DNA from: a virus
DNA: 64,000 nucleotides
Direction: 5' to 3' (one strand)
Virus genome (UHGV): UHGV-1356548
Shown in pieces: positions 3,600 to 30,650 of this stretch (position 1 is its first letter; each line of letters starts with the position of its first letter). The notes under the pieces were generated by a model. It was given only the letters and a program-made list of their open reading frames with translations. It searched no databases and was not told the DNA's origin. The translations under genes were made by a program, and so were the position numbers.

Positions 3600-3609
3600 T
3601 ATTCTACCT

Positions 3610-3630
3610 CTAAAATGGGGCCGAAGCCCC
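3610..3630 (-). terminator. intergenic stem-loop between nrdA and nrdB (attenuator or weak terminator)
   Basis: Minus-strand GGGGC-TTCG-GCCCC hairpin followed by AUUUUA, in the 38-bp gap between nrdA stop and nrdB start. Confidence 0.35.
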
Positions 3631-3637
3631 TTTAAAA

Positions 3638-5953
3638 TTATAGTGCACAGCTTTCGCAATACGGATCTTCAACTGAACTATCTGCAATCAAAGGATAGTT
3701 CTTTCTGGTTTCATCTTCAGCCTGTTTCTTGGCATGAAGTTCCTCTGCCAAGGAGTCACCAGCACCAACCCTAGAGTTTAAATAATACCATGTCTTCATC
3801 CCGAATTTAGTGGCACGGATAAGGTACCCTAACTGCTCCTTCATTGAAATTTTACCATCTTTCAACTTGGTGTAGTCTATGTATAAATCCGCGCTGATTG
3901 CCTGACCTGTGAATTTTTGAATTACAGCATACATATCGATCATGTCGTTAGTATCAACGTCCCAAGCCGAGGTGTAATACTCTTTCAACTCATCATAGTC
4001 AGGAACGATAAACAGCACCTGCCCTTGTGGCGACTTTTTAAAGATAATGTGCTCACGGACAGGATAAACCCCGTTAGTGGTGTTTGTTGCCAGCGAAGAG
4101 CTTTCATTAGGCATATATGCTTCAAGAACGCTATTACGTAGCCCACCATTTTCAATGATTTCTTTACGTAACCCTTCCCAATCCTGTTTAAGAGAAGGAT
4201 CTTTCACCACGCTATCGACCTCTTTGTTGTAGGTGTCGATTGGTAACCAACCTTCTGGATATTTTGTTTTATGCATCCACTCGCAGACACCACGCTCTTT
4301 TGCCAACCGTAAACTTGCCTTATGCAAGCTGTAGCTGTGAAGTTCTGCAAGATCGTGAACGAGCTGTTTACTTTCAGGAGATCCGTAAGTAACCTTGTGG
4401 CTGGCAATAAAATGTGCAACATTGGTAAGGCCAACCCCGATGGATCTGCGTTTTTTAACTGTGCTTTCCATATTTTCATACGGATATGTCATGATTTCCA
4501 TAACATTGTCAATCATAAGCACCGTGTAGTATGCAACATCCTCATACTCCTCTGGGGTAACCCTTCCAGCTACAAGAGATGACAGGAAGCACAATGCAAC
4601 TTCGCCATCATCAACATCGTGCTTGAAGATATTACGCATATCTGAATAGCCTTTTGTCGGGAGAGCTATTTCTGCACACAGGTTACTTGAATAGATCACA
4701 TCTTTAAAAGGTGTATGTCTATTCATCTCATCTGTCCAGTATACGTACAGTCTTCCCACCTCGGTACGCTGCGTGATCAGCTCAACAGCAAGATCTCTAG
4801 CTCGGATCCATGTTTTAGGAATACTGTCATCTTTAGCGATACGATCAACCTCTGCATCAAACTCCTCCATAGACATGGTGAAGATACCCTCATGCAGTTG
4901 AGGCGCGTGCTTATAAGAAACAAGCATCCAATCCAAATTCTTAGCCACACGGTTGATAAACGACCTATTAATACCGATGGAGTAGTCCATGGTGTTGATT
5001 CTTTTTGAAGCAACAGTCATAGGGTTTCTCAAACGGATTAGCTCATCAATCTGCGGGTCCAGTGCAAGGAATGATACTGTTGCAGAACCGCCACGTGATT
5101 GTTGTCTGTTCTCCTTAACCCCAGCATCAATACCTCGATAATATGGAATCTTACCCATATGTTTAATAGTGTTACCACGAACACCATCGCCTGCAGATCT
5201 TGATGATAAATAGTAGCCGATACCTGCTTGGTTAACCGTCATTGTGTACGCAACTTCACGTGCCACACCAATAGATTTTGCTGTATCGTCAGCTTTTATT
5301 ACACAACAAGATGCATACCCTGTCTTACCTGTGCGCAGCCCGTTTAAGTACGGTGTCGGGGCATTGATCTTTAAGTCGGACAGATAAGTGTACAATTTTA
5401 CAACATCGTTGATACGACGTTCTTTCGGCATATTCTTCATGACAGCCATTGCTATCCCCATAAACATCATCTGGGGAGATTCAAACAGGGTGTCTTTAAG
5501 AGTATCCTTGATCCCGTATTTGTCGCGAAACTGTTTAAGGACTGCATAGCCATAACCGAGATCTTTACTGTGGTCAATAACAGCGTCTAAAGTGTTTAGC
5601 TCGGTAAAGCTATAGCCCATATCCTCCCAATACCCTTTCTCAACCATGGTATTGTAAAATGATGGTAAGGAAGGGATCTTTGTAAACCCTCCAAAAGCCT
5701 CTTTATAAATCTGACCAATAAGAACACGACCAGCCATACGGGAATGTGCTTCGTCTTTACGGCTAACACAGGAGTCTATGATAGCTTGGTTAACTTCTTT
5801 GGTTGTACATCCATCATACAGTCGTTTGTATGCATCCAGTGCAATGTGTGACCAATTGCCGTTACCGTCGTCACCGAAAATAGCTGCCTTATTTAAACGT
5901 TCTGGATCGAATGCCACTTCACATCCGTTGCTTTTAATTACCTTGGTGATCAA
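3638..5953 (-). CDS. nrdA: ribonucleotide reductase large subunit (class Ia alpha)
   Basis: 771-aa ORF; N-terminal ATP-cone-like segment (VIKSNGCEVAFDPERL), C-terminal CESC redox pair; directly upstream of nrdB. Confidence 0.85.
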   Translation of the reverse strand: MITKVIKSNGCEVAFDPERLNKAAIFGDDGNGNWSHIALDAYKRLYDGCTTKEVNQAIIDSCVSRKDEAHSRMAGRVLIGQIYKEAFGGFTKIPSLPSFYNTMVEKGYWEDMGYSFTELNTLDAVIDHSKDLGYGYAVLKQFRDKYGIKDTLKDTLFESPQMMFMGIAMAVMKNMPKERRINDVVKLYTYLSDLKINAPTPYLNGLRTGKTGYASCCVIKADDTAKSIGVAREVAYTMTVNQAGIGYYLSSRSAGDGVRGNTIKHMGKIPYYRGIDAGVKENRQQSRGGSATVSFLALDPQIDELIRLRNPMTVASKRINTMDYSIGINRSFINRVAKNLDWMLVSYKHAPQLHEGIFTMSMEEFDAEVDRIAKDDSIPKTWIRARDLAVELITQRTEVGRLYVYWTDEMNRHTPFKDVIYSSNLCAEIALPTKGYSDMRNIFKHDVDDGEVALCFLSSLVAGRVTPEEYEDVAYYTVLMIDNVMEIMTYPYENMESTVKKRRSIGVGLTNVAHFIASHKVTYGSPESKQLVHDLAELHSYSLHKASLRLAKERGVCEWMHKTKYPEGWLPIDTYNKEVDSVVKDPSLKQDWEGLRKEIIENGGLRNSVLEAYMPNESSSLATNTTNGVYPVREHIIFKKSPQGQVLFIVPDYDELKEYYTSAWDVDTNDMIDMYAVIQKFTGQAISADLYIDYTKLKDGKISMKEQLGYLIRATKFGMKTWYYLNSRVGAGDSLAEELHAKKQAEDETRKNYPLIADSSVEDPYCESCAL

Positions 5954-6258
5954 TTTGCTTCCTCCACTTCACTAACGTATTTATCAAGGCAGGTATCAGT
6001 ATCTTGCTGGATAAAAGTATCCTCTTCTACAGAGATATTTATAATTTTACCTGTATACTCGTCATAATAGACATCATCATACATTTTAATATCGTTTGTC
6101 AGGCCATTGAACCAAAGCCAACCAACATACTCTGCCCGGCTTGCAAAACCAAGATCCTTCCACTTGGAGTTATGACTCATCTTCACCACCTTAGCTTTCA
6201 ATACCGAATAATTTTTCCAGGCGATGCAGATCTTCAAAATTGAAAGGTTCATCAACAA
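5950..6258 (-). CDS. hypothetical protein
   Basis: 102-aa ORF, 4-nt overlap with nrdA start; true start may be an internal Met. Confidence 0.3.
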   Translation of the reverse strand: MLMNLSILKICIAWKNYSVLKAKVVKMSHNSKWKDLGFASRAEYVGWLWFNGLTNDIKMYDDVYYDEYTGKIINISVEEDTFIQQDTDTCLDKYVSEVEEAN

Positions 6259-6691
6259 TATGAATATCTTCAGCCTTTTCAGATTGTTTTGTATACTTTC
6301 TTACATTAACACGATCCTCTACAGGGATATCATACGGAAGATCTTGAACAAGCATTGCCTCACCGGGTGCTTTATCTACATCTAAAATATCTACACCGTT
6401 ATACATTTGCGGATATCTAAAGTCTGCACGCATGACACCAGCAAATACATCTGCCTTTCGATAATGTGTTGGCTTATTTTTGCATCGAACGTTTTTTCCA
6501 CGAAGAACATCAATACTTTTTAAATCGAACCCTACGGCAAAGAGTGCAGCTCGGAGACCGTTTCGTGTGCGAACGTTAAACCCGGGAACGGTAGATAGGA
6601 AATCCAAAGTAACTGAAATAAATGTCTTTTTAGGAATCATAACATTACTCATATCTGTCTCCATTTCTGGCTCACTAACAAAGTGAGCCAT
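6191..6691 (-). CDS. hypothetical protein
   Basis: 166-aa ORF in the same operon orientation; no motif recognised. Confidence 0.35.
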   Translation of the reverse strand: MAHFVSEPEMETDMSNVMIPKKTFISVTLDFLSTVPGFNVRTRNGLRAALFAVGFDLKSIDVLRGKNVRCKNKPTHYRKADVFAGVMRADFRYPQMYNGVDILDVDKAPGEAMLVQDLPYDIPVEDRVNVRKYTKQSEKAEDIHIVDEPFNFEDLHRLEKLFGIES

Positions 6692-6750
6692 TATTATAGA
6701 TTATCTGATACTATTAGTCAACACAAAAGTTACCTATCGCTGTGATAGGA

Positions 6751-7734
6751 TTAACCTTTCACGAAGTGGTTATTAAGCAGTTGTCTGTGCTGAACCCACC
6801 CACAAAAGTTGGCAGACCAGAATTTACCATCACGGTCTTGATGGGTTACACCTTCCTGCCAAGTACTGATGTCTTGTGTGATTTCACATGAAGACAGGTA
6901 GTAGTTTAAACGTTCCATTGCGTTATCGTGATCCATAGGTGTTGCCTGGTGCTCGTAAGGGCTTGCATGAATACGATCCCCACCAATCAATTTTTTAGCC
7001 ACACTGTCTGCCTTTTCAAACGTGCTGTCAATATTTCGATAAGATACTTGTGCACAGCAACTAGCACTGATAGACAGAGCTTCTTTAGTATCGAGAATGC
7101 AGAGCTTTCCTTCTGTGTCACGCACAGCGTAGTTAAACTCTCCGTCCAAATAAACGTGCTCTACATATGGGGTGTGCCATTGACCCGGTTTAAGGATTTC
7201 AGGAGTGCTATTCCCAAGAGCCTCCCACATACAATTAGCCAACATCTGAATCGTAGGATCCGCATCGTGCCAGCAACGGAGGTGGAAAAAATTATTCCAC
7301 TCGGTGCTTGTTACAACTGTTTTCATGCGCTGAAAAGGCTCCACTAAGCGGTTACATACTTGCTTATGGTAACCAGCAAGTGCGAACTTCTCTGCATGCC
7401 AGGCTGCATTTTTGGCAGCTTCTTTCCAGAACTCTTCAGGAGAGAACTCAAGATCAGTATACTCTACACGGATCTTCTGATCGTGATCGCCACCATCCTC
7501 CATACCTCGCTGGTTTACACCAAAACGAACTGGCATTGCAGGATTTTCCACAACCTGCTGCAGCATTTTGTTAACAGGTACTGCACGAGAGGACATGGCG
7601 TTTCTGCTGAAAACTCGGTGTGTCATGAGTTCAGAGTGAATGATTCTAGGATACTCTAGCTCAAAAGTGGTTATACGCTTACCTTTCTCGGAAATGCTGT
7701 CAGCAATAATCTTTGCAGTGCACAGTTTTAGCAT
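6751..7734 (-). CDS. thyX: FAD-dependent thymidylate synthase (ThyX-like)
   Basis: 327-aa ORF with an RHR-x7-S-like segment (ELMTHRVFSRNAMSSR) typical of ThyX; nucleotide-metabolism neighbourhood. Confidence 0.5.
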   Translation of the reverse strand: MLKLCTAKIIADSISEKGKRITTFELEYPRIIHSELMTHRVFSRNAMSSRAVPVNKMLQQVVENPAMPVRFGVNQRGMEDGGDHDQKIRVEYTDLEFSPEEFWKEAAKNAAWHAEKFALAGYHKQVCNRLVEPFQRMKTVVTSTEWNNFFHLRCWHDADPTIQMLANCMWEALGNSTPEILKPGQWHTPYVEHVYLDGEFNYAVRDTEGKLCILDTKEALSISASCCAQVSYRNIDSTFEKADSVAKKLIGGDRIHASPYEHQATPMDHDNAMERLNYYLSSCEITQDISTWQEGVTHQDRDGKFWSANFCGWVQHRQLLNNHFVKG

Positions 7735-16433: not shown

Positions 16434-17717
16434 TCATTCCAGAACCTCCCAAGTGTCTGGGTCAACATTTCGGACGCAGATACCGACAGGGAATTGGTAG
16501 TTGTTGTCTTCTGTCCTTGATTGATATTTGAAGGTGACAAACTTGCCGATCATTTCCTGCATCCTGTCATAGCTACGCTCCTCGTGCGTGCCTTTCATCT
16601 TCATTTTAACAATAACACCTTCCTTGTCAACACAGATAAGAACACCTTCATCATTCTTATCTTTCTCAACGTCAATAACTTTCACCTCTGCGTCGTTGAA
16701 CTTTTTCCATTTCAATGCTTCAGATGTTCGCTGACCGTACTCGTATTTACCGCAGAAATTACGCATGATAGTACCTTCATATCCTTCGGACATGAATATA
16801 CCAACAGATTCTTCGCAATGATCAACTGTGTACGCAAGCTCTGCGTCAACAACCTTGATATGGTCAAGCATCAGAGTGGTAACGGTATCCTCTGCATCCA
16901 TAAGATCCTTGCAGCGTCCAGACTCTGTTTCTGGATCCCACCACACCTTGTCGCTAGGAATATCAAAAATGTGATACTCCAGATCGTAGCTACAGTACCC
17001 ACCGTAACGCAAATCATCACGAACAGGCTCAACATCGACAGGAATATCTACCTTGTTGAAGTTTTTGTATGTTGATAAACCTGCCTTAATTGCTGCATGA
17101 CGGCGTTTTTTATCTGCCTCATAGTCTTTATCGATCTCGGCCTGAATCTCTTCCTGTGTGCGCCACCGTTTAGCAAGAGACACTATTTTCTGCAAAGGAA
17201 GACCATGAATGTATAGTTCCCCATCAAGTTGTTTAATCCCAGTGGTAGAATGGAAAGAACGAAGTTGCTCTAAAAGCTTTCCTTGAATAGGGTAGGACTT
17301 ATTACCACGGGAAATAAATTTAGGCTCACCATTTTGGAAAACAACAAGCAGACGAAGGCCATCTAACTTACGCAAGATCCAGCAAGGTAATTTAAGTGCC
17401 TTGCCACGCTTCAGGTAGTCATGCACCAGCATGGGTAAAAGATCAACACCCTGCTCGCAATCTTCCATGTTTTCAACATACCCCAGACGGACTTGTTTTT
17501 CCCACTTGCTGATAGCCTCAAGCTCGGCCTGTTGCTCAGCTGTAGTCTCGTTGGCACGACCTACGTTCTTAGGTGTGCATACCGTCTCTTTGTACTGCAG
17601 TTTACCATCAAGCTTGCCAAACTCTACGATAACCTTATCACCATCCGTGAATACTTTCCACTGTTGGTAGCTGCCATCTTTATTCAGTGCGTACAGTGTT
17701 GTTTTGATCTGATGCAT
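16434..17717 (-). CDS. ATP-dependent DNA ligase (intact copy)
   Basis: Motif I KLDGLR (KxDGxR), motif III LDGELYIHG, motif IV EGTIMR, motif V LKWKK; 427 aa. Its last 47 codons lie outside the duplicated unit. Confidence 0.7.
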   Translation of the reverse strand: MHQIKTTLYALNKDGSYQQWKVFTDGDKVIVEFGKLDGKLQYKETVCTPKNVGRANETTAEQQAELEAISKWEKQVRLGYVENMEDCEQGVDLLPMLVHDYLKRGKALKLPCWILRKLDGLRLLVVFQNGEPKFISRGNKSYPIQGKLLEQLRSFHSTTGIKQLDGELYIHGLPLQKIVSLAKRWRTQEEIQAEIDKDYEADKKRRHAAIKAGLSTYKNFNKVDIPVDVEPVRDDLRYGGYCSYDLEYHIFDIPSDKVWWDPETESGRCKDLMDAEDTVTTLMLDHIKVVDAELAYTVDHCEESVGIFMSEGYEGTIMRNFCGKYEYGQRTSEALKWKKFNDAEVKVIDVEKDKNDEGVLICVDKEGVIVKMKMKGTHEERSYDRMQEMIGKFVTFKYQSRTEDNNYQFPVGICVRNVDPDTWEVLE

Positions 17718-17986
17718 TACTCGGCCTCTTCCTTAAAAATTTTAAACATCTCTTCTTTACTCATTACCAACCAGTCTCCCATAAAGTCAACTAGCCAATC
17801 TCCCTGGTACAAGACAAGGTTACCAAAAGGCTCGACAAGCTCACACATGCGACGAAGATCTCTGGTCCGAACAGGTGACGATGTAAACACACCTGTATCA
17901 ATCCACCGTTGCAGATCAGATACTGATGAAGAGCTTCCGTCAAACTGATGTGCTTCTACAGGTTTAGCAAGATTAAATAACGGCAT
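17717..17986 (-). CDS. hypothetical protein
   Basis: 89-aa ORF; stop overlaps ligase start (TAATG). Confidence 0.3.
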   Translation of the reverse strand: MPLFNLAKPVEAHQFDGSSSSVSDLQRWIDTGVFTSSPVRTRDLRRMCELVEPFGNLVLYQGDWLVDFMGDWLVMSKEEMFKIFKEEAE

Positions 17987-18281
17987 TGCAGTCCTCCTTC
18001 TGTAGTAGGTCTTTTATAGGATAAACAAGTAAGTGTGGGTCGTAATAACGTATAGTCCTATTCTGCCACACTATGAACTTTATTACAACCAAATTTACAA
18101 TATCTTTATCACCATGTAGCCCAACACACACATTTGTCCATATTTTGTGGTTGAAGACCTTGCTATCGATGTAGATTTTAGTGTCAAACTTATCTTCCAT
18201 TCTACCAATAAGTTTGATCAGCTCCTTCATCTGGTCGCCAAACACAGCATCTTTTTCAAGATCTCTGGAATGCTTGTACAT
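17973..18281 (-). CDS. hypothetical protein
   Basis: 102-aa ORF. Confidence 0.3.
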   Translation of the reverse strand: MYKHSRDLEKDAVFGDQMKELIKLIGRMEDKFDTKIYIDSKVFNHKIWTNVCVGLHGDKDIVNLVVIKFIVWQNRTIRYYDPHLLVYPIKDLLQKEDCNAVI

Positions 18282-18310
18282 AACTGACTACCTCACTGCA
18301 TACTTTCCAT

Positions 18311-18336
18311 AATAAGTAAAGCCGGGTAATCCCGGC
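18311..18336 (-). terminator. rho-independent terminator (copy 1)
   Basis: Minus-strand GCCGGG-ATTA-CCCGGC hairpin followed by UUUACUUAUU, just 3' of the MazG-like gene stop. Confidence 0.5.
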
Positions 18337-18343
18337 TATGTTG

Positions 18344-19057
18344 TTAAATATACTCTGTTACATCCTTGAAGCTCGAAGGCTTCATAATCTTACCTTTACT
18401 GTCAAGGAATATAATAACTTTATTGCCGTTGTAGAACTCCTCTTTAGCAACGAAACCTTCGTAGCGACCACCAAAACGACGCTCAAGATCTTTAATCTCC
18501 AACTCGATGAGTTGTTCAGCAGGCATATCTGCACTGGCACCGTGTGAATGCCGTAGATGGTTGATCCGTGCAAACTTACTGTCATTAGATTTTAGAACCT
18601 TCCGCATCATCCCACACACATCCCCGCTAAGCTGGAACAGCAAAGCTGTTGATAACTCCGCTAGTCGGTAAGCTGACGCTCTTTGCTTGGATGTGTTTTT
18701 CGCAGCGATCAGTGTATCATAGAACTCACCGATCTTGAACTTAAGACCTCGCGGATTATCAAACAGGTTTGACCACTTTTCGTGGTTATCATTAACAAGA
18801 TAAGCTGCATAACTTGTGACAACGTGAAGATCGCAGGCCTCTTTTAGCAGGTGATCTCCACCATCACCTTTCTCCAGCTCTTCCAAAACCTCATTGAACT
18901 CTTCCTCAATGAAGCTAAGCTGTAATTCGAATGGTGTGTATGATTTTTTCACTTTAGCTGCCACACGGTTCCAGTTTTCCACCCAGTTGGCAGACCAAAG
19001 GTAGTTTTCAGGCTGGGACAGTTTTTCCAGGTTGTCGATCAGTTTAGTATTCAGCAT
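18344..19057 (-). CDS. MazG-like nucleotide pyrophosphohydrolase domain protein
   Basis: FIEEEFNEVLEELEKGDGGDHLLKEACDLHVV fits the EExxE...E...D acidic helix pattern of MazG/NTP-PPase family; C-terminal ~100 aa unassigned. Confidence 0.4.
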   Translation of the reverse strand: MLNTKLIDNLEKLSQPENYLWSANWVENWNRVAAKVKKSYTPFELQLSFIEEEFNEVLEELEKGDGGDHLLKEACDLHVVTSYAAYLVNDNHEKWSNLFDNPRGLKFKIGEFYDTLIAAKNTSKQRASAYRLAELSTALLFQLSGDVCGMMRKVLKSNDSKFARINHLRHSHGASADMPAEQLIELEIKDLERRFGGRYEGFVAKEEFYNGNKVIIFLDSKGKIMKPSSFKDVTEYI

Positions 19058-19070
19058 TAAAGGTCTCCTT

Positions 19071-19832
19071 TTAAAGTTCCATAAAGTTTTCTACAGTTTC
19101 AATAAATGCTTTATCAGAGAAAGCGTCAACAGCACCGTTAAACCATACAGGGATCCCGCGATCCTCATATTGATAAAGGTCGCTACGTGAAATGCCACTT
19201 CCATCTGCACTCTGCGAATCATACTTGTTTACAATCAGCAGTTTTGTGCCTTTACAAGTAGCAGGAAACAATTCCCAGTTAAAATTAATAACTGTGTTAG
19301 AACAACCTACCAGGATCACCATATCATTGCTTGTGAGAGATGTCAACAGGTCATACATGTCTGTATACTTAGGAGCAACCTCACCGAAGAACACTACATT
19401 GGGCTTAACCCAGGTATACTTGCCTGTATCTACCTCCGTGTATCCGATATTTTTAATTACATCATTACCTTCAGCATCTTCGTAGGTGATTTCAGGCAAA
19501 TACCCGTGGACATGTAAAATATCTTCATGTTTTACACCAGCACGCTCCAGCAAATCATCTACATTGGTAGTAAGGTTGATCACACGACCAGACCAGCGGG
19601 AATACCACTCAGCGATCCGAAGATGTGCAAGGTTAGGATCAACACTGCCCAGAGCTACACGACGTGCATTGTAAAAGTCATGCACCTTATAGTAGTTCTT
19701 GGCAAAGGTGTGGATGTTGCACACCTCATCGATGCTGAAATTCTCCCACATTGCAGTGCTACCAGATCGGAAAGTGGGAATACCAGATTCAGCGCTCAAA
19801 CCAGCACCGGAGATAATAATCAGTCGTCGCAT
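19071..19832 (-). CDS. Sir2-family (sirtuin-like) NAD-dependent protein, Zn-module absent
   Basis: GAGLSAESGIPTFR (sirtuin GAGxSxxSGIPxFR), DPNLAHL...TTNVDDLLERAG (PNxxH...TQNxDxLhxxAG), HVHG, KPNVVFFGE (RPxVVxFGE); no CxxC...CxxC zinc tetrad. Confidence 0.8.
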   Translation of the reverse strand: MRRLIIISGAGLSAESGIPTFRSGSTAMWENFSIDEVCNIHTFAKNYYKVHDFYNARRVALGSVDPNLAHLRIAEWYSRWSGRVINLTTNVDDLLERAGVKHEDILHVHGYLPEITYEDAEGNDVIKNIGYTEVDTGKYTWVKPNVVFFGEVAPKYTDMYDLLTSLTSNDMVILVGCSNTVINFNWELFPATCKGTKLLIVNKYDSQSADGSGISRSDLYQYEDRGIPVWFNGAVDAFSDKAFIETVENFMEL

Positions 19833-19840
19833 AAGTGTCC

Positions 19841-20191
19841 TCAGTAGATGTTTTGTTTAATCTCTATTCCAAACTTCTTGAATGAGTCAGCAGCAAGCAT
19901 AAATTTACGAGCTGCCGATGGATTAGAAGTATGCACGAAAATAATCACGTTGTCAATAAGTGGTGGCTTTCCGAATACAAGTTTCTCCTCTAGCGCAGAG
20001 AAGCAGTCGTACCCTTCAAGCACTTCACCTAGATCATTGTCAAAATGCCACTCAGAAACGCGCCTGTAGAGCTTTCTATTATCGTTAATAAAATCCATGA
20101 ACTCAGAAGAGTTCTTCAGCCAAAGAGCATCTTGGATTCCGTAATTTGACGGATCTCTCAAGTCATCTAGCCACACAATCAACTTCTTCAT
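19841..20191 (-). CDS. hypothetical protein
   Basis: Start set to ATG forming an ATGA overlap with the RNA ligase stop (MKKLIVWLDD...); 116 aa. Confidence 0.4.
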   Translation of the reverse strand: MKKLIVWLDDLRDPSNYGIQDALWLKNSSEFMDFINDNRKLYRRVSEWHFDNDLGEVLEGYDCFSALEEKLVFGKPPLIDNVIIFVHTSNPSAARKFMLAADSFKKFGIEIKQNIY

Positions 20192-21123
20192 TGCATATAG
20201 TCCTCGTTGTGAAAATAGCAATCAAGTATCTCACGGCGTTCCTGCTCCAGGAGGCAGTTCCACACATCTTCTGTGTAATTGCTACGAATGAAGTTTACCA
20301 TGCCATAAAACTCTTCGTCAATACGTTTAAAGATATCATCATCCCAAATCTTCCAAGCTTTACCCCTCATTACGGCCTTCCGTGCCAAATAGTATGGAGA
20401 CTTGATCTTCAGCTGCAGGTCATAAGGGTAGTAAGGCTTACGGATCATATACCCTTCGCCCCTTGTTTCTGCAGCTAATTCTTTTGCATAGCTGAACGGG
20501 ATTTCACGCACAGTGTGAGGACGTTTTGCACCAAGGTATTTGGCAATCCCATCTAAAGCTGCTTCTGGTAGCATTATTCCAGAATCATTATATCTGCAAC
20601 CTATCAAATATGCGCCATGGTCTTCTTGAACAATATGCGGATCTGAAGGGTGACAAATTTCAAACATGAATGTCATGTTTTCATTGCCCATAACCTTCTT
20701 GATAAGATCTAAATTACCACATTGCTCTTGGATGGTTTCCTTTGCAAGGTTACAATATGGAGAATCAAGAGACCCGGTTGTTGAGAACAATAGGTCACCT
20801 TTATGAGATGATACCACACCAAGGAATCCGTTCTTTTTCTCTACCGCAGTCACAAGCTTATTGTCAGGCAGGTTGGTGGAGTTTTCTCCCAAGTTAAACA
20901 CTTTTGTGAAGGGCCATGCCACAACATTTCCTTCATTACCTACAACAATGCCTCGGCACTCCAGTAAACGAGGGGACAAATGCCATAAATTGTTGTAAAA
21001 TACTTTTCTAGCATATTTATAGATCTTTAACCCGAGATCTGGGTAATACCTACTGGTTACAAGACCTTTGTCAACTAGGTCGTCTGCATTAAAATACTTC
21101 ATCATACGTTCCTCATTTGTCAT
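20188..21123 (-). CDS. RNA ligase-like nucleotidyltransferase
   Basis: Candidate motif I VEKKNGFLG (K-x-N-G), motif IV EGYMIRKPY, motif V LKIKSPYY; 311 aa; adjacent to kinase/phosphoesterase genes. Confidence 0.55.
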   Translation of the reverse strand: MTNEERMMKYFNADDLVDKGLVTSRYYPDLGLKIYKYARKVFYNNLWHLSPRLLECRGIVVGNEGNVVAWPFTKVFNLGENSTNLPDNKLVTAVEKKNGFLGVVSSHKGDLLFSTTGSLDSPYCNLAKETIQEQCGNLDLIKKVMGNENMTFMFEICHPSDPHIVQEDHGAYLIGCRYNDSGIMLPEAALDGIAKYLGAKRPHTVREIPFSYAKELAAETRGEGYMIRKPYYPYDLQLKIKSPYYLARKAVMRGKAWKIWDDDIFKRIDEEFYGMVNFIRSNYTEDVWNCLLEQERREILDCYFHNEDYMQ

Positions 21124-21166
21124 TTTGTCAGTCTATCCTGCCACACAAATAACCTAGTGTCAACAC

Positions 21167-21195
21167 TTGAAATTAACAAAACAGTCAGGTATACT
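21167..21195 (+). promoter_or_regulatory. sigma70-like promoter, duplicated copy at the duplication junction
   Basis: TTGAAA-N17-TATACT identical to the kinase promoter at 25828-25856; here it points into the antisense of the truncated ligase copy. Confidence 0.45.
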
Positions 21196-21235
21196 ACCGT
21201 TGAAATTAAAACGGAGGGTCACTATGTCTAAAATG

Positions 21236-22378
21236 CTATATATCGTGCGTGCCTTTCATCTTCATTTTAACAATAACACCTTCCTTGTCAACACAGATAA
21301 GAACACCTTCATCATTCTTATCTTTCTCAACGTCAATAACTTTCACCTCTGCGTCGTTGAACTTTTTCCATTTCAATGCTTCAGATGTTCGCTGACCGTA
21401 CTCGTATTTACCGCAGAAATTACGCATGATAGTACCTTCATATCCTTCGGACATGAATATACCAACAGATTCTTCGCAATGATCAACTGTGTACGCAAGC
21501 TCTGCGTCAACAACCTTGATATGGTCAAGCATCAGAGTGGTAACGGTATCCTCTGCATCCATAAGATCCTTGCAGCGTCCAGACTCTGTTTCTGGATCCC
21601 ACCACACCTTGTCGCTAGGAATATCAAAAATGTGATACTCCAGATCGTAGCTACAGTACCCACCGTAACGCAAATCATCACGAACAGGCTCAACATCGAC
21701 AGGAATATCTACCTTGTTGAAGTTTTTGTATGTTGATAAACCTGCCTTAATTGCTGCATGACGGCGTTTTTTATCTGCCTCATAGTCTTTATCGATCTCG
21801 GCCTGAATCTCTTCCTGTGTGCGCCACCGTTTAGCAAGAGACACTATTTTCTGCAAAGGAAGACCATGAATGTATAGTTCCCCATCAAGTTGTTTAATCC
21901 CAGTGGTAGAATGGAAAGAACGAAGTTGCTCTAAAAGCTTTCCTTGAATAGGGTAGGACTTATTACCACGGGAAATAAATTTAGGCTCACCATTTTGGAA
22001 AACAACAAGCAGACGAAGGCCATCTAACTTACGCAAGATCCAGCAAGGTAATTTAAGTGCCTTGCCACGCTTCAGGTAGTCATGCACCAGCATGGGTAAA
22101 AGATCAACACCCTGCTCGCAATCTTCCATGTTTTCAACATACCCCAGACGGACTTGTTTTTCCCACTTGCTGATAGCCTCAAGCTCGGCCTGTTGCTCAG
22201 CTGTAGTCTCGTTGGCACGACCTACGTTCTTAGGTGTGCATACCGTCTCTTTGTACTGCAGTTTACCATCAAGCTTGCCAAACTCTACGATAACCTTATC
22301 ACCATCCGTGAATACTTTCCACTGTTGGTAGCTGCCATCTTTATTCAGTGCGTACAGTGTTGTTTTGATCTGATGCAT
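21236..22378 (-). pseudogene. 3'-truncated duplicate of ATP-dependent DNA ligase
   Basis: Identical to residues 1-377 of the 16434-17717 product, then ends ...GTHDI* at the duplication junction, losing the last 47 residues. Confidence 0.6.
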
Positions 22379-22647
22379 TACTCGGCCTCTTCCTTAAAAA
22401 TTTTAAACATCTCTTCTTTACTCATTACCAACCAGTCTCCCATAAAGTCAACTAGCCAATCTCCCTGGTACAAGACAAGGTTACCAAAAGGCTCGACAAG
22501 CTCACACATGCGACGAAGATCTCTGGTCCGAACAGGTGACGATGTAAACACACCTGTATCAATCCACCGTTGCAGATCAGATACTGATGAAGAGCTTCCG
22601 TCAAACTGATGTGCTTCTACAGGTTTAGCAAGATTAAATAACGGCAT
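22378..22647 (-). CDS. hypothetical protein (duplicate of 17717-17986)
   Basis: Identical translation to copy 1. Confidence 0.3.
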   Translation of the reverse strand: MPLFNLAKPVEAHQFDGSSSSVSDLQRWIDTGVFTSSPVRTRDLRRMCELVEPFGNLVLYQGDWLVDFMGDWLVMSKEEMFKIFKEEAE

Positions 22648-22942
22648 TGCAGTCCTCCTTCTGTAGTAGGTCTTTTATAGGATAAACAAGTAAGTGTGGG
22701 TCGTAATAACGTATAGTCCTATTCTGCCACACTATGAACTTTATTACAACCAAATTTACAATATCTTTATCACCATGTAGCCCAACACACACATTTGTCC
22801 ATATTTTGTGGTTGAAGACCTTGCTATCGATGTAGATTTTAGTGTCAAACTTATCTTCCATTCTACCAATAAGTTTGATCAGCTCCTTCATCTGGTCGCC
22901 AAACACAGCATCTTTTTCAAGATCTCTGGAATGCTTGTACAT
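22634..22942 (-). CDS. hypothetical protein (duplicate of 17973-18281)
   Basis: Identical translation to copy 1. Confidence 0.3.
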   Translation of the reverse strand: MYKHSRDLEKDAVFGDQMKELIKLIGRMEDKFDTKIYIDSKVFNHKIWTNVCVGLHGDKDIVNLVVIKFIVWQNRTIRYYDPHLLVYPIKDLLQKEDCNAVI

Positions 22943-22971
22943 AACTGACTACCTCACTGCATACTTTCCAT

Positions 22972-22997
22972 AATAAGTAAAGCCGGGTAATCCCGGC
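22972..22997 (-). terminator. rho-independent terminator (copy 2)
   Basis: Duplicate of the 18311-18336 hairpin. Confidence 0.5.
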
Positions 22998-23004
22998 TAT
23001 GTTG

Positions 23005-23718
23005 TTAAATATACTCTGTTACATCCTTGAAGCTCGAAGGCTTCATAATCTTACCTTTACTGTCAAGGAATATAATAACTTTATTGCCGTTGTAGAACTC
23101 CTCTTTAGCAACGAAACCTTCGTAGCGACCACCAAAACGACGCTCAAGATCTTTAATCTCCAACTCGATGAGTTGTTCAGCAGGCATATCTGCACTGGCA
23201 CCGTGTGAATGCCGTAGATGGTTGATCCGTGCAAACTTACTGTCATTAGATTTTAGAACCTTCCGCATCATCCCACACACATCCCCGCTAAGCTGGAACA
23301 GCAAAGCTGTTGATAACTCCGCTAGTCGGTAAGCTGACGCTCTTTGCTTGGATGTGTTTTTCGCAGCGATCAGTGTATCATAGAACTCACCGATCTTGAA
23401 CTTAAGACCTCGCGGATTATCAAACAGGTTTGACCACTTTTCGTGGTTATCATTAACAAGATAAGCTGCATAACTTGTGACAACGTGAAGATCGCAGGCC
23501 TCTTTTAGCAGGTGATCTCCACCATCACCTTTCTCCAGCTCTTCCAAAACCTCATTGAACTCTTCCTCAATGAAGCTAAGCTGTAATTCGAATGGTGTGT
23601 ATGATTTTTTCACTTTAGCTGCCACACGGTTCCAGTTTTCCACCCAGTTGGCAGACCAAAGGTAGTTTTCAGGCTGGGACAGTTTTTCCAGGTTGTCGAT
23701 CAGTTTAGTATTCAGCAT
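23005..23718 (-). CDS. MazG-like domain protein (duplicate)
   Basis: Identical translation to 18344-19057. Confidence 0.4.
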   Translation of the reverse strand: MLNTKLIDNLEKLSQPENYLWSANWVENWNRVAAKVKKSYTPFELQLSFIEEEFNEVLEELEKGDGGDHLLKEACDLHVVTSYAAYLVNDNHEKWSNLFDNPRGLKFKIGEFYDTLIAAKNTSKQRASAYRLAELSTALLFQLSGDVCGMMRKVLKSNDSKFARINHLRHSHGASADMPAEQLIELEIKDLERRFGGRYEGFVAKEEFYNGNKVIIFLDSKGKIMKPSSFKDVTEYI

Positions 23719-23731
23719 TAAAGGTCTCCTT

Positions 23732-24493
23732 TTAAAGTTCCATAAAGTTTTCTACAGTTTCAATAAATGCTTTATCAGAGAAAGCGTCAACAGCACCGTT
23801 AAACCATACAGGGATCCCGCGATCCTCATATTGATAAAGGTCGCTACGTGAAATGCCACTTCCATCTGCACTCTGCGAATCATACTTGTTTACAATCAGC
23901 AGTTTTGTGCCTTTACAAGTAGCAGGAAACAATTCCCAGTTAAAATTAATAACTGTGTTAGAACAACCTACCAGGATCACCATATCATTGCTTGTGAGAG
24001 ATGTCAACAGGTCATACATGTCTGTATACTTAGGAGCAACCTCACCGAAGAACACTACATTGGGCTTAACCCAGGTATACTTGCCTGTATCTACCTCCGT
24101 GTATCCGATATTTTTAATTACATCATTACCTTCAGCATCTTCGTAGGTGATTTCAGGCAAATACCCGTGGACATGTAAAATATCTTCATGTTTTACACCA
24201 GCACGCTCCAGCAAATCATCTACATTGGTAGTAAGGTTGATCACACGACCAGACCAGCGGGAATACCACTCAGCGATCCGAAGATGTGCAAGGTTAGGAT
24301 CAACACTGCCCAGAGCTACACGACGTGCATTGTAAAAGTCATGCACCTTATAGTAGTTCTTGGCAAAGGTGTGGATGTTGCACACCTCATCGATGCTGAA
24401 ATTCTCCCACATTGCAGTGCTACCAGATCGGAAAGTGGGAATACCAGATTCAGCGCTCAAACCAGCACCGGAGATAATAATCAGTCGTCGCAT
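23732..24493 (-). CDS. Sir2-family protein (duplicate)
   Basis: Identical translation to 19071-19832. Confidence 0.8.
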   Translation of the reverse strand: MRRLIIISGAGLSAESGIPTFRSGSTAMWENFSIDEVCNIHTFAKNYYKVHDFYNARRVALGSVDPNLAHLRIAEWYSRWSGRVINLTTNVDDLLERAGVKHEDILHVHGYLPEITYEDAEGNDVIKNIGYTEVDTGKYTWVKPNVVFFGEVAPKYTDMYDLLTSLTSNDMVILVGCSNTVINFNWELFPATCKGTKLLIVNKYDSQSADGSGISRSDLYQYEDRGIPVWFNGAVDAFSDKAFIETVENFMEL

Positions 24494-24501
24494 AAGTGTC
24501 C

Positions 24502-24852
24502 TCAGTAGATGTTTTGTTTAATCTCTATTCCAAACTTCTTGAATGAGTCAGCAGCAAGCATAAATTTACGAGCTGCCGATGGATTAGAAGTATGCACGAA
24601 AATAATCACGTTGTCAATAAGTGGTGGCTTTCCGAATACAAGTTTCTCCTCTAGCGCAGAGAAGCAGTCGTACCCTTCAAGCACTTCACCTAGATCATTG
24701 TCAAAATGCCACTCAGAAACGCGCCTGTAGAGCTTTCTATTATCGTTAATAAAATCCATGAACTCAGAAGAGTTCTTCAGCCAAAGAGCATCTTGGATTC
24801 CGTAATTTGACGGATCTCTCAAGTCATCTAGCCACACAATCAACTTCTTCAT
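24502..24852 (-). CDS. hypothetical protein (duplicate of 19841-20191)
   Basis: Identical translation to copy 1. Confidence 0.4.
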   Translation of the reverse strand: MKKLIVWLDDLRDPSNYGIQDALWLKNSSEFMDFINDNRKLYRRVSEWHFDNDLGEVLEGYDCFSALEEKLVFGKPPLIDNVIIFVHTSNPSAARKFMLAADSFKKFGIEIKQNIY

Positions 24853-25784
24853 TGCATATAGTCCTCGTTGTGAAAATAGCAATCAAGTATCTCACGGCGT
24901 TCCTGCTCCAGGAGGCAGTTCCACACATCTTCTGTGTAATTGCTACGAATGAAGTTTACCATGCCATAAAACTCTTCGTCAATACGTTTAAAGATATCAT
25001 CATCCCAAATCTTCCAAGCTTTACCCCTCATTACGGCCTTCCGTGCCAAATAGTATGGAGACTTGATCTTCAGCTGCAGGTCATAAGGGTAGTAAGGCTT
25101 ACGGATCATATACCCTTCGCCCCTTGTTTCTGCAGCTAATTCTTTTGCATAGCTGAACGGGATTTCACGCACAGTGTGAGGACGTTTTGCACCAAGGTAT
25201 TTGGCAATCCCATCTAAAGCTGCTTCTGGTAGCATTATTCCAGAATCATTATATCTGCAACCTATCAAATATGCGCCATGGTCTTCTTGAACAATATGCG
25301 GATCTGAAGGGTGACAAATTTCAAACATGAATGTCATGTTTTCATTGCCCATAACCTTCTTGATAAGATCTAAATTACCACATTGCTCTTGGATGGTTTC
25401 CTTTGCAAGGTTACAATATGGAGAATCAAGAGACCCGGTTGTTGAGAACAATAGGTCACCTTTATGAGATGATACCACACCAAGGAATCCGTTCTTTTTC
25501 TCTACCGCAGTCACAAGCTTATTGTCAGGCAGGTTGGTGGAGTTTTCTCCCAAGTTAAACACTTTTGTGAAGGGCCATGCCACAACATTTCCTTCATTAC
25601 CTACAACAATGCCTCGGCACTCCAGTAAACGAGGGGACAAATGCCATAAATTGTTGTAAAATACTTTTCTAGCATATTTATAGATCTTTAACCCGAGATC
25701 TGGGTAATACCTACTGGTTACAAGACCTTTGTCAACTAGGTCGTCTGCATTAAAATACTTCATCATACGTTCCTCATTTGTCAT
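24849..25784 (-). CDS. RNA ligase-like nucleotidyltransferase (duplicate)
   Basis: Identical translation to 20188-21123. Confidence 0.55.
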   Translation of the reverse strand: MTNEERMMKYFNADDLVDKGLVTSRYYPDLGLKIYKYARKVFYNNLWHLSPRLLECRGIVVGNEGNVVAWPFTKVFNLGENSTNLPDNKLVTAVEKKNGFLGVVSSHKGDLLFSTTGSLDSPYCNLAKETIQEQCGNLDLIKKVMGNENMTFMFEICHPSDPHIVQEDHGAYLIGCRYNDSGIMLPEAALDGIAKYLGAKRPHTVREIPFSYAKELAAETRGEGYMIRKPYYPYDLQLKIKSPYYLARKAVMRGKAWKIWDDDIFKRIDEEFYGMVNFIRSNYTEDVWNCLLEQERREILDCYFHNEDYMQ

Positions 25785-25827
25785 TTTGTCAGTCTATCCT
25801 GCCACACAAATAACCTAGTGTCAACAC

Positions 25828-25856
25828 TTGAAATTAACAAAACAGTCAGGTATACT
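25828..25856 (+). promoter_or_regulatory. sigma70-like promoter of kinase/phosphoesterase operon
   Basis: TTGAAA (25828-25833), 17-bp spacer, TATACT (25851-25856); GGAGGG RBS precedes ATG 25885; direct repeat TTGAAATTAA occurs twice in this region. Confidence 0.5.
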
Positions 25857-25884
25857 ACCGTTGAAATTAAAACGGAGGGTCACT

Positions 25885-26295
25885 ATGTCTAAAATGCTAT
25901 ATATCGTGCGTGGTCTACCAGGGTCTGGCAAATCAACACTGGCAAATGCGCTATCTTTAGAGGGTCTGTATCCACATTTTGAGAACGACATGTTCTGGTA
26001 TGACGATGACGGCAATTACAACTGGGATGCAAGTAAAGTAACACTCGCAGCAAAATGGTGCAAAGATAACGTAGAAGATATGATGCGTATGGGATACGAC
26101 CGTATCGTGGTAAGTAATACGTTTACAAAAGAAAAACATGTGCAGGAATATGTTGACATGGCAATCAGTCATGGGTATAGTTATACCGTGATCGTGGTTG
26201 AAAACCGCCACGGTAATAAAAGCATTCATGATGTTCCAGACAAGGTTGTGGATCGTATGGAACGCCAGCTTAAAAACTGCATTAAACTTAAATGA
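25885..26295 (+). CDS. P-loop polynucleotide 5'-kinase-like protein
   Basis: Walker A RGLPGSGKST at residues 9-18 and overall resemblance to the kinase domain of T4 Pnk; start moved to ATG 25885 (the ORF-track TTG start at 25828 lies in the promoter). Confidence 0.55.
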   Translation: MSKMLYIVRGLPGSGKSTLANALSLEGLYPHFENDMFWYDDDGNYNWDASKVTLAAKWCKDNVEDMMRMGYDRIVVSNTFTKEKHVQEYVDMAISHGYSYTVIVVENRHGNKSIHDVPDKVVDRMERQLKNCIKLK

Positions 26296-26302: not shown

Positions 26303-26857
26303 ATGAAATACTTTGTAACAAGCGACACACACTTTCTCCACCAGCGGGTCATGGAGTTTGATTCATGTCAAAAACACAGATCTCAGTATGATCACAATCT
26401 TGACAGTATGAATGCGGGAATCATCGCCAAGTGGAACTCTGTTGTGTCACCTGCAGACACTGTGTTCCACTTGGGAGATATTGCGTGCACTAATGATAAG
26501 AATATCAACAACTTACTTCCAGATATTCTAAATATGTTGAACGGACATATTATTCTTGTTCGTGGCAACCATGACACAAGGACGACTGTCAGAATTATGA
26601 AAGAGTTCGGTCATGAGGTTGTAGATTATTACGAGCTTCGCCACAACAAGAATTTGATCTGTATGAGCCATTACCAGTTTGCAAAGTGGAACAGAAAGCC
26701 TCACGGATCAGTCCAACTGTTCGGTCATGCTCACGGAACCACACAACAGTTGTTTGGCAGGCAGCTTGATGTCGGTTGGGATGTGTGGGGGAGACTCTTA
26801 CCATTAGAAGAGGCATACCGTATTGCAATGAGTTTTGATATTGACAGCAGGGAGTAA
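26303..26857 (+). CDS. calcineurin-like metallophosphoesterase
   Basis: Motifs VTSDTHF (DxH), GDIA (GD), GNHD, GHAH in canonical order; start at ATG 26303 (MKYFVTSDTHF). Confidence 0.7.
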   Translation: MKYFVTSDTHFLHQRVMEFDSCQKHRSQYDHNLDSMNAGIIAKWNSVVSPADTVFHLGDIACTNDKNINNLLPDILNMLNGHIILVRGNHDTRTTVRIMKEFGHEVVDYYELRHNKNLICMSHYQFAKWNRKPHGSVQLFGHAHGTTQQLFGRQLDVGWDVWGRLLPLEEAYRIAMSFDIDSRE

Positions 26858-29792: not shown

Positions 29793-29867
29793 GCCCTGTT
29801 AGCTTAGTGGATAAAGCAGCGGCCTTCTAAGCCGTTGACACTGGTTCGAGTCCAGTACGGGGTGCCA
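29793..29867 (+). tRNA. tRNA-Arg (anticodon UCU)
   Basis: Cloverleaf by hand: acceptor GCCCTGT/ACGGGGT, D-arm GCTT...AAGC, anticodon loop CTTCTAA, T-loop TTCGAGT, encoded CCA. Confidence 0.75.
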
Positions 29868-29871
29868 AATT

Positions 29872-29958
29872 GGGGAGTTATCCCGTAGGGGTAGCGGTGT
29901 AGACTGTAAATCTATTGTCATTGCGACTCGGGTGGTTCGACTCCACCACTCCCCACCA
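29872..29958 (+). tRNA. tRNA-Tyr (anticodon GUA), class II
   Basis: Acceptor GGGGAGT/ACTCCCC, anticodon loop CTGTAAA, long variable arm resembling E. coli tRNA-Tyr, T-loop TTCGACT, encoded CCA. Confidence 0.8.
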
Positions 29959-30072
29959 AATTTATAGTTTTAAATGCATAAATCATACAGATAATGGCAT
30001 TGATATTTATCGTCGTTTATACTAGTCACTAACTGCTCGAAAATCAGTGTCATTATCAGTATTGTTTATAAA

Positions 30073-30163
30073 TGAGGGTAGGGAGCAATGGTGCTCAAGC
30101 GGTCTTGAAAACCGTCCCGTTGAGGATGACTTGATGATGGTTCGATTCCATTACCCTCAGCCA
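30073..30163 (+). tRNA. tRNA-Ser (anticodon UGA), class II
   Basis: Acceptor TGAGGGT/ACCCTCA, anticodon arm GCGGT-CTTGAAA-ACCGT, long variable arm, T-loop TTCGATT, encoded CCA; 5' boundary +/-1 nt. Confidence 0.7.
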
Positions 30164-30260
30164 TATTGTTGACCTTGTAATTAAGCGAAAGCCGGAAGCA
30201 GAACCGGATTATCAAATGTTACAGTCGTCATCGCCGACTAGCAACATGGTCAACATACTG

Positions 30261-30359
30261 AGCTAGGTAAGCCCTTTGGCAAGGGCGAGGATTTTTAATC
30301 CTGAAAATAGACGAGGTAGTCGTTGAATACATAGGTGGTTCGATTCCATCACCTAGCAC
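30261..30359 (+). tRNA. atypical tRNA-like gene, Lys-type anticodon loop (UUU), oversized variable region
   Basis: Perfect 7-bp acceptor GCTAGGT/ACCTAGC, D-arm GCCC-TTTGGCAA-GGGC, anticodon arm AGGA-TTTTTAA-TCCT, T-arm GGTGG-TTCGATT-CCATC, but 32 nt (with its own GACGA-GGTAG-TCGTT hairpin) between anticodon and T arms; 3' end is CCT not CCA. Confidence 0.4.
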
Positions 30360-30364
30360 CTTTT

Positions 30365-30440
30365 TGCTGATGTAGCACAATTGGTAGTGCAATTGATTTG
30401 TAATCAATAGGTTGCAGGTTCAAGTCCTGCCATCAGCACC
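30365..30440 (+). tRNA. tRNA-Thr (anticodon UGU)
   Basis: Acceptor GCTGATG/CATCAGC, anticodon arm ATTGA-TTTGTAA-TCAAT, T-loop TTCAAGT, encoded CCA. Confidence 0.85.
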
Positions 30441-30441
30441 A

Positions 30442-30516
30442 TGGCCCTGTAGCTGGAAGGTTCAAGCAAGCGACTCATAATCGCCAGACGGTGGTTCAAT
30501 TCCACCCAGGGCCACC
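30442..30516 (+). tRNA. tRNA-Met (anticodon CAU; elongator or Ile-lysidine type)
   Basis: Acceptor GGCCCTG/CAGGGCC with G1-C72 pair, anticodon arm GCGA-CTCATAA-TCGC, T-loop TTCAATT, encoded CCA. Confidence 0.8.
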
Positions 30517-30527
30517 AAATAATAAAT

Positions 30528-30604
30528 ACTCCGCGTAGCTCAGCTTGGTAGAGCGCCTGATTTGGGATCAGGAGGTCGAGTGTTCGAATCACTCCGTGGA
30601 GACC
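30528..30604 (+). tRNA. tRNA-Pro (anticodon UGG)
   Basis: Acceptor CTCCGCG/CGTGGAG with the C1-G72 pair typical of bacterial tRNA-Pro, D-arm GCTC...GAGC, anticodon arm CCTGA-TTTGGGA-TCAGG, T-loop TTCGAAT, encoded CCA. Confidence 0.85.
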
Positions 30605-30650
30605 ACTTTCAGTTATACTTTAAACATATACAAACAAAAGGAACCTTTAA

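Follow-up and report, generated by a model that had tools for sequence, protein, structure and literature searches.

An rV5-like phage sirtuin that has lost its zinc ligands, with its gene neighbourhood and possible roles

Introduction

Phage proteins close to the one considered here, the product of a Sir2-family (sirtuin) gene at 19071..19832 on the minus strand of UHGV virus genome UHGV-1356548, have been described before; the window, as we call it, is the whole stretch of 64,000 nt analysed from that genome, given as one strand. Skliros et al. 2016 modelled the Sir2/CobB protein of the Vibrio schizoT4-like phages phiSt2 and phiGrn1 on E. coli CobB, noted that a zinc ligand is absent from the finger domain of the Vibrio-phage proteins, KVP40 included, suggested salt bridges as its replacement, and listed T5 and other phages as carriers of a Sir2/CobB protein (PMC5107563). 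The Vibrio-phage gene was transcribed during infection, and deacetylation of Acs was proposed as its role (PMC5107563).

Iyer, Burroughs, Anantharaman and Aravind (2022, Viruses 14:1977, section 3.7.3; PMC9503650) described a phage RNA-repair-associated sirtuin clade. In the neighbourhood of Escherichia phage V5 they listed the sirtuin with a T4-like tRNA/RNA ligase, cREC, a nucleotide kinase, a MazG pyrophosphatase and a calcineurin-like phosphoesterase, and they predicted that the phage sirtuin removes RNA 2'-phosphates like KptA/Tpt1 (PMC9503650). The sirtuin of the T5-like phage SP15 was named together with a HAD phosphatase, and the main text makes no mention of zinc (PMC9503650). The window sirtuin is a member of this clade and of PHROG 2162; the gene itself is the same, and only the duplication of its cassette in the window sets it apart.

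All of this, from the gene and its lack of zinc ligands to the neighbourhood of RNA-repair genes, had been annotated and published before, and the novelty implied in a preliminary description of the window did not hold. The gene is annotated in Escherichia phage I29 (ON286975.1), where I29_77, "putative Sir2-like protein", is 100% identical to the window sirtuin, and in more than 1000 phage records, others of which name it "NAD-dependent deacetylase" or "sirtuin domain NAD-dependent deacetylase"; the loss of zinc was published in 2016 and the neighbourhood in 2022. Our literature searches found no experimental study of any member of the phage sirtuin family. What we add is minor, namely the clade-wide retention of a YxxR pair, a correlation between zinc loss and a Q-to-T change, the operon structure, a quantification of the partial linkage to RNA-repair genes, and the prediction from a model that the zinc-ribbon fold is kept without its cysteines.

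Results and Discussion

The sirtuin domain and its missing zinc ligands

The open reading frame (ORF) at 19071..19832 (minus strand) is complete from ATG to stop and codes for 253 aa; a GAGGA Shine-Dalgarno sequence lies 6 nt upstream. The preliminary description had identified it as a phage-encoded Sir2-family protein with no CxxC...CxxC tetrad, and on both points our results agree. All of the motifs that it quoted are present, GAGLSAESGIPTFR starting at residue 9, PNLAH at 66, TTNVDDLLERAG at 88, HG at 109 and PNVVFFGE at 144. Residues 9-181 match positions 1-178 of the 180 in the Pfam SIR2 profile (PF02146) with 98.2 bits against a cut-off of 24 (E=6.9e-28), which places the protein above the curated threshold of the Sir2 superfamily with a significance far beyond chance, and residues 1-252 match PHROG 2162, "Sir2 (NAD-dependent deacetylase)", from end to end (E=1.5e-108). 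The protein is a single stand-alone domain. Its only cysteines are C38, C177 and C193, none of them in a CxxC and none between H109 and P144, where the sirtuin tetrad is situated; the Cys4 zinc site of the canonical sirtuin deacylases (classes I-IV and U) is not found in the 253 aa.

The same picture emerged from an alignment of the clade (34 homologues, 49-93% identity), in which the zinc tetrad is absent from every member. The Sir2 motifs, i.e. GAGxS, FR, (Q)NxD, the catalytic His-Gly, FGE, G-x-S and the distal Asn, are present and invariant in all 34, except that the Q is replaced by T89. The invariant residues (34/34) are G9, A10, G11, S16, G17, F21 and R22; F53, Y54, R57 and R58; T89, N90, V91 and D92; H109 and G110; K143 and P144; F148, F149 and E151; G176, S178 and N179; and N202. 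Since the NAD-contacting motifs and the catalytic His are all invariant in the clade, NAD-dependent chemistry is likely, and the protein is probably active as an enzyme. It is close to certain that the ORF encodes a stand-alone NAD+-binding Sir2 domain of rV5-like phages in which the catalytic residues are intact and the four zinc cysteines have been lost.

The AlphaFold2 (AF2) model of the protein (mean predicted local distance difference test score, pLDDT, 89.3; predicted template modelling score 0.88) displays the Rossmann and small domains of the sirtuin fold. The top 50 Foldseek matches in the PDB were all sirtuins (E down to 3e-18; template modelling score, TM, 0.7-0.84), led by CobB (TM 0.74-0.84), Sir2Af1 and SIRT5. 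The fold and the catalytic residues, which the preliminary description had wished to see confirmed, are both in place. Its statement that the protein lacks the zinc module is correct for the ligands, which are gone, but not for the module itself: the small-domain segment is of the usual length, with 34 residues between HG and KPN, a pLDDT of about 95 and strands modelled at 110-118, 124-128 and 142-146. The model predicts a zinc-ribbon fold that is kept even though the cysteines are missing, only the metal ligands being lost.

In a wider search with representatives we obtained 5496 homologues at E<=1e-3, aligned the nearest 150 (50%-identity representatives) and counted the 136 that were 215-320 aa long. 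The Cys4 site was absent in 52 of these, and 84 had kept all of the cysteines. T took the place of Q in QNxD in 37 of the 52 zinc-less proteins versus 11 of the 84 cysteine-keeping relatives. Zinc loss was also accompanied by G(C/A/S)S in place of GTS, and the median isoelectric point (pI) was 5.1 in the zinc-less group versus 6.2 in the relatives with cysteines. Some close relatives, P0135 among them, keep CxxC...CxxC within the same "IGY...KPxVVFFGE" framework, and such proteins show along which route the zinc ligands were lost.

Ancestry and the case for a deacylase

In a sequence search of the PDB, E. coli CobB (1s5p, E=3e-21) and SIRT5 ranked highest, ahead of Sir2Af1/Af2, Sir2Tm and SIRT2. 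The NCBIfam matches were to CobB-type deacylase models only (NF001753, NF040867 and others), and seven out of seven remained below their curated cut-offs, the best with 122.6 against 243 bits. Scores so far under the cut-offs rule out a true CobB orthologue. Like E. coli CobB and human SIRT5, the phage protein has the GAGxSAESGIxTFR loop, the FYxxRR (Tyr/Arg) pair, N-x-D, the catalytic HG and KPxVVxFGE. Unlike them, it has no zinc cysteines, carries T for Q in TQNID (T89, aligned to Q140 of SIRT5), reads GCSN-VIN instead of GTS-VYP, and differs in its C-terminal third as well as in its sub-cut-off NCBIfam scores. The YxxR pair of class III is present, Y54 and R57 aligning to the FYHYRR segment of SIRT5 and to FYNARR of CobB, and both residues are invariant in the clade. 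Their counterpart in SIRT5 is the Y102/R105 pair; in SIRT5 and CobB the Tyr/Arg pair binds the carboxylate of succinyl-lysine. Because of the ranking of PDB and Foldseek matches, the CobB-type NCBIfam matches and the lack of a match to PADLOC profiles (see below), the sirtuin almost certainly descends from class III (CobB/SIRT5-type) deacylases and not from the defence Sir2 clades, and it has kept the YxxR anion-binding pair.

The phage protein could, then, be a CobB-like protein lysine deacylase (deacetylase or desuccinylase) that would reactivate host or phage proteins, for instance acetyl-CoA synthetase, aminoacyl-tRNA synthetases or the phage's own repair enzymes, by stripping inhibitory acyl groups from them. 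The nearest sequences and structures (E. coli CobB, SIRT5, Sir2Af1) and the best NCBIfam matches all point this way, as do the invariant His109, FGE motif and succinyl-lysine-binding YxxR pair of class III. This is also the role that Skliros et al. 2016 proposed for the Vibrio-phage homologue, which is transcribed in infection (PMC5107563). Moreover, about half of the Sir2 lineages surveyed below have no RNA-repair neighbours, and some sirtuins adjoin NAD-salvage genes such as NAMPT, an arrangement that fits any NAD-consuming enzyme. However, NCBIfam scores far under every curated cut-off would be odd in a plain deacylase, as would the loss of the zinc ligands, the Q-to-T change in QNxD, and the replacement of GTS-x-V-x-P by G(C/A)SN-x-VIN in the strand that normally staples the substrate peptide. 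A deacylase would furthermore leave the recurrent linkage with three unrelated types of RNA-end-processing enzymes unexplained, and the host already has a CobB of its own. We regard this role as rather unlikely, while recognising it as a close rival of the part in RNA repair that we discuss below.

Comparison with defence Sir2 proteins and ADP-ribosyltransferases

The defence Sir2 NADases (ThsA, DSR1/2, SIR2-HerA and SIR2-pAgo), which have the Sir2 superfamily in common with the phage protein, are not known to carry a canonical zinc tetrad. The preliminary description had drawn attention to NAD-depleting defence proteins of this kind in bacteria, and the likeness did not survive closer comparison. 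No family among the PADLOC defence-system profiles matched the sirtuin at E<=0.01, its nearest relatives are the deacylases CobB, SIRT5 and Sir2Af1, and it consists of one stand-alone domain. A sensor or partner (SLOG, HerA, pAgo or a long C-terminal domain) was found neither fused nor adjacent to it, the neighbours being Rnl1, cREC and a MazG-like protein. In contrast to the defence NADases the protein is phage-encoded, in an early metabolic or repair operon. A defence-type Sir2 NADase is ruled out by the absent PADLOC match together with the deacylases as nearest relatives.

A related possibility is an enzyme that acts on small molecules, either metabolites derived from NAD+ and ADP-ribose or immune signals, in counter-defence or in metabolism, with cREC and the MazG-like enzyme clearing its products. 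The intact NAD site would suit such an enzyme, and so would the partners, since cREC and MazG/Nudix proteins are predicted processors of ADP-ribose derivatives and cREC-Nudix fusions occur beside the jumbo-phage homologues (PMC9503650). NAD-salvage neighbours are likewise seen in some lineages (NAMPT once and AAA_28 three times among the neighbours scanned). Nevertheless, the protein has no similarity to defence or signalling Sir2 models, and it keeps acyl-lysine-type tunnel residues and a catalytic His for which a simple NADase has no need. A free NADase would be harmful to a phage that requires NAD+, and the literature searched held no precedent. We consider such an activity improbable.

The intact NAD site is equally compatible with a mono-ADP-ribosyltransferase that modifies a host or phage protein, as SirTM does or, in function, T4 Alt/ModA/ModB, and sirtuins are able to ADP-ribosylate proteins according to the review text of PMC9503650. 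Against this, no macro-domain partner is found among the neighbours in the window, and the phage sirtuin clade is likewise without one (PMC9503650). The catalytic His typical of deacylases is retained, and the clade is nearest to class III, not to class M. A protein ADP-ribosyltransferase thus seems to us quite improbable.

Gene neighbourhood in the window

The preliminary description had put the sirtuin gene in a nucleic-acid repair cassette, and the cassette is indeed one for RNA/DNA end repair. It had further placed the gene between a MazG-like gene and an RNA ligase; the MazG-like gene does adjoin it, but the upstream neighbour is a cREC_REC gene, and the ligase lies one gene further. All of these genes are on the minus strand. 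The first is Rnl1, a T4 Rnl1-type RNA ligase (20188..21123; Pfam RNA_lig_T4_1, E=1.1e-14; PHROG 562, E=7e-66), whose stop codon overlaps the ATG (ATGA) of the gene for cREC_REC, a cyclic-phosphate-processing receiver-like protein (19841..20191; Pfam PF20274, E=5.7e-14; PHROG 1479; I29_76 in phage I29). After a gap of 8 nt comes Sir2 and, 13 nt downstream of it, the gene for a candidate MazG-like nucleotide pyrophosphohydrolase (18344..19057; PHROG 671, E=1.9e-21), which is followed by a terminator-like GC-rich hairpin (18320..18337; 7-bp stem, 6 GC pairs; from a consensus scan, a pattern match only). From this spacing Rnl1, cREC, Sir2 and the MazG-like gene look like one tight four-gene operon, and the hairpin is probably the end of its transcription unit. 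The MazG-like label rests on PHROG 671, a weak PRA-PH match (E=0.08) and the published classification, in which the corresponding neighbour is placed in the MazG superfamily (PMC9503650); the protein had no significant Pfam match and no PDB sequence match at E<=1. As a side observation, some records give the cREC gene the name 'RNA ligase 1 and tail attachment protein'.

Divergent from the Rnl1 operon, on the plus strand, are genes for a P-loop kinase (25885..26295; AAA_33, polynucleotide-kinase-like; Pfam AAA_33, E=1e-10; I29_74) and a calcineurin-like metallophosphoesterase (26303..26857; Pfam Metallophos_2 and Metallophos, E about 1e-6; I29_73), the latter a candidate RNA 3'-end healing enzyme. 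Rnl1, cREC, the kinase, the MazG-like protein and the phosphoesterase are all five encoded within 7 kb in the window. Downstream of the operon an intact gene for an ATP-dependent DNA ligase is found (16434..17717, minus strand; Pfam DNA_ligase_A_M and OB_2). ARAGORN called seven tRNA genes at 29793..30605 (plus strand), about 3 kb beyond the kinase and phosphoesterase genes. Six of them are Arg-TCT, Tyr-GTA, Ser-TGA, Thr-TGT, Met-CAT and Pro-TGG; the seventh, at 30262..30360, is a 99-nt tRNA-like call whose anticodon has four bases. In the I29 record the corresponding stretch is annotated with only four tRNAs.

Context in other phages

By tblastn the sirtuin was found in 1012 of 50,697 phage records, with a coverage of at least 80% in 877. 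Carriers of homologues are the Vequintavirinae, T5 (T5.102, 57% identity) and many other Demerecviridae, Mydovirus-like Klebsiella phages, Phapecoctavirus- and phi92-like phages, KVP40-like Vibrio phages, and jumbo phages. The KVP40-like phage nt-1 has 46% identity over residues 3-194 (tblastn). The Vibrio-phage Sir2/CobB differs from the window protein in being divergent past about residue 200, in having NAD-salvage genes and not Rnl1-cREC as neighbours, and in the role of Acs deacetylation proposed for it. The Mydovirus-like Klebsiella phage Iguana_ER37 has the gene set of the window around its Sir2 as well, but rearranged.

In T5, Sir2 belongs to an early operon together with a HAD_SAK_2 "Swiss-army-knife RNA repair" phosphatase and two DUF7415 proteins. 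At 6142..7481 of T5 the order is T5.102 (Sir2), T5.105 (HAD_SAK_2, E=4e-20), T5.106 and T5.107 (two DUF7415 repeats each), and the last three genes are merely "conserved hypothetical proteins" in the T5 record. T5.100, which at 126 aa has the length of a cREC protein, was considered as a hidden cREC and rejected (BLASTP E=1.7, no Pfam match).

In IMG/VR, 76 loci were surveyed and grouped into 26 Sir2 lineages. Rnl1, cREC, the kinase, the phosphoesterase or MazG was encoded within 10 kb of Sir2 in about five of the 26, and HAD_SAK was found near Sir2 in four, which take in 23 T5-like loci. The neighbours in the lineages without these seed genes, for which 106 proteins were scanned and the counts pooled by family, not per locus, included DUF7275/7277, NrdD, DUF7415, AAA_28, two Metallophos, one RlaP and one NAMPT. 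The linkage to RNA repair is real and recurrent, and it is not universal across the wider family.

A few observations on these records stand apart. At 1797..5795 of Escherichia phage ukendt the sirtuin shares a conserved block with a DUF7277-DUF7275 protein, a Dcm methylase and several proteins without Pfam matches; this block is common to Phapecoctavirus-like phages, in which the sirtuin does not adjoin Rnl1-cREC, and DUF7275/DUF7277 recur in four of the 106 neighbour proteins scanned. Around 18-25 GenBank records of "Campylobacter phage" (host C. jejuni; MG065653.1, MG065676.1 and others) are, in this region, 99-100% identical to E. coli Vequintavirus or phi92-like sequence, which suggests that they are mislabelled or contaminated. 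In protein clusters P0038 and P0008 a sirtuin homologue of a Klebsiella phage is named 'tail assembly protein', and a Salmonella 'hypothetical protein' homologue, on a 111-kb contig, probably stems from T5-like phage DNA.

A possible role in RNA repair

The best-supported reading is in our view that the phage sirtuin helps to repair tRNAs or other RNAs that host anticodon nucleases have cleaved, through chemistry like that of Tpt1/KptA, a role we hold to be quite possible and put forward tentatively. A phosphate on the damaged RNA, namely the 2'-phosphate that remains once a 2',3'-cyclic end has been opened, could be held by the invariant Tyr54/Arg57 pair and would attack C1'' of NAD+ in the sirtuin active site, with release of nicotinamide. 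ADP-ribose would in this way be moved from NAD+ to the RNA phosphate, the adduct would be resolved in the fashion of Tpt1, and cREC and the MazG-like enzyme would degrade the by-product. Both the substrate and the products in this scheme are ones that we infer.

In its most specific form, the proposal is that the zinc-less sirtuin is a non-homologous analogue of Tpt1/KptA, performing NAD+-dependent phosphate removal or ADP-ribosylation on nuclease-damaged tRNA with a re-used Tyr/Arg pair, and that cREC and the MazG-like enzyme destroy ADP-ribose cyclic-phosphate. We find this possible, if more doubtful than a part in RNA repair as such, and the idea of a Tpt1/KptA analogue has been in print since 2022. 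Tpt1/KptA has an unrelated fold, that of the ADP-ribosyltransferase (ART) superfamily, and the phage protein has a sirtuin fold without sequence similarity to it; the relationship would be one of functional analogy only, and we offer it as a proposal.

A part in RNA repair is favored by the active site, intact in all 34 clade members, and the confident sirtuin model, by the tight operon with the kinase, phosphoesterase and tRNA genes close by, and by the prediction published for the V5 neighbourhood. It is also favored by the context, which recurs across several phage lineages and involves three unrelated types of end-processing enzymes, and by an RlaP RNA-repair gene near one lineage that is otherwise without seed genes. 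However, the proposal should be interpreted with some caution since a number of points weigh against it. First, polynucleotide kinase, phosphoesterase and Rnl1 already make up a complete heal-and-seal pathway that would leave no 2'-phosphate, as known from the biochemistry of T4 Pnkp and Rnl1. Secondly, the nearest characterised relatives are all protein deacylases, and we know of no sirtuin that acts on nucleic acid. Thirdly, the linkage is incomplete: in about 14 of the 26 IMG/VR lineages no RNA-repair gene could be recognised at distances of up to roughly 2.6-10 kb from Sir2, the T5-like loci have no RNA ligase within 10 kb of it, and in Phapecoctavirus-type phages cREC and Rnl1 lie about 30 kb away. 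The clade is also strongly acidic (median pI 5.1, net charge about -12), with no sign of a general RNA-binding surface, and the literature searches mentioned above brought up no experiment on any member. Overall charge was discarded as a test of RNA binding; it does not discriminate, the phage DNA ligase being equally acidic.

Identity of the window and the tandem duplication

A megablast search with 16000-24500 returned 122 phage records, mostly of Escherichia Vequintavirus (rV5-like), with phage I29 at 100%; the flanks of the window region differ from I29 by 0 and 1 mismatches in 6 kb on each side. The DNA is that of a Vequintavirus and equals I29 except for a single tandem duplication. Self-comparison revealed a perfect tandem duplication at 16582..25912 with a unit of 4661 bp, the copies being 16582..21242 and 21243..25903. 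The sequence at 16582..21251 equals that at 21243..25912 exactly, with a period of 4661 bp, and a 9-bp microhomology, TCGTGCGTG, is common to the boundaries. Through the duplication, two small ORFs are present twice along with Rnl1, cREC, Sir2 and the MazG-like gene. The second copies, all on the minus strand, are Rnl1 at 24849..25784, cREC_REC at 24502..24852, Sir2 at 23732..24493 with an identical translation, and the MazG-like candidate at 23005..23718, followed by the second terminator-like hairpin at 22981..22998. Besides leaving one DNA ligase gene intact, the duplication yields a 3'-truncated copy in which the last 47 codons are missing (21236..22378, minus strand; from the ORF list). 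It also produces a chimeric ORF (21167..21736, plus strand) in which the first nine kinase codons are joined through the microhomology to antisense ligase sequence.

No record spanning the duplication junction (21243..21251) was found among the 50,697 phage records, and I29 and 121 related records are single-copy. The 42-nt junction string is absent from IMG/VR, and the chimeric 380-aa product of the truncated ligase gene has no record in the assembly collection. The preliminary description had said that the sirtuin gene is present twice, which is true of the window but not of the phage family; the single copy in I29 and its 121 relatives, with the junction absent elsewhere, rules out the duplication as a family trait. 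The perfect identity of the copies and the microhomology at their boundaries agree with either a very recent illegitimate recombination or an assembly artefact.

Conclusions

The family to which the window sirtuin belongs spans more than 1000 sequenced phages, the model phage T5 included, and its biochemical role is known only as a prediction. Should the protein prove to be a deacylase, it would illustrate how a virus resets the acylome of its host. If it takes part in RNA repair with NAD+, sirtuin chemistry would be extended from proteins to nucleic acids, with this protein as the first sirtuin for which an action on RNA is shown. Such a role would give phages a new step in their counter-defence against anticodon nucleases, and would explain the resistance of rV5-, T5- and phi92-like phages to defences that cut tRNA.

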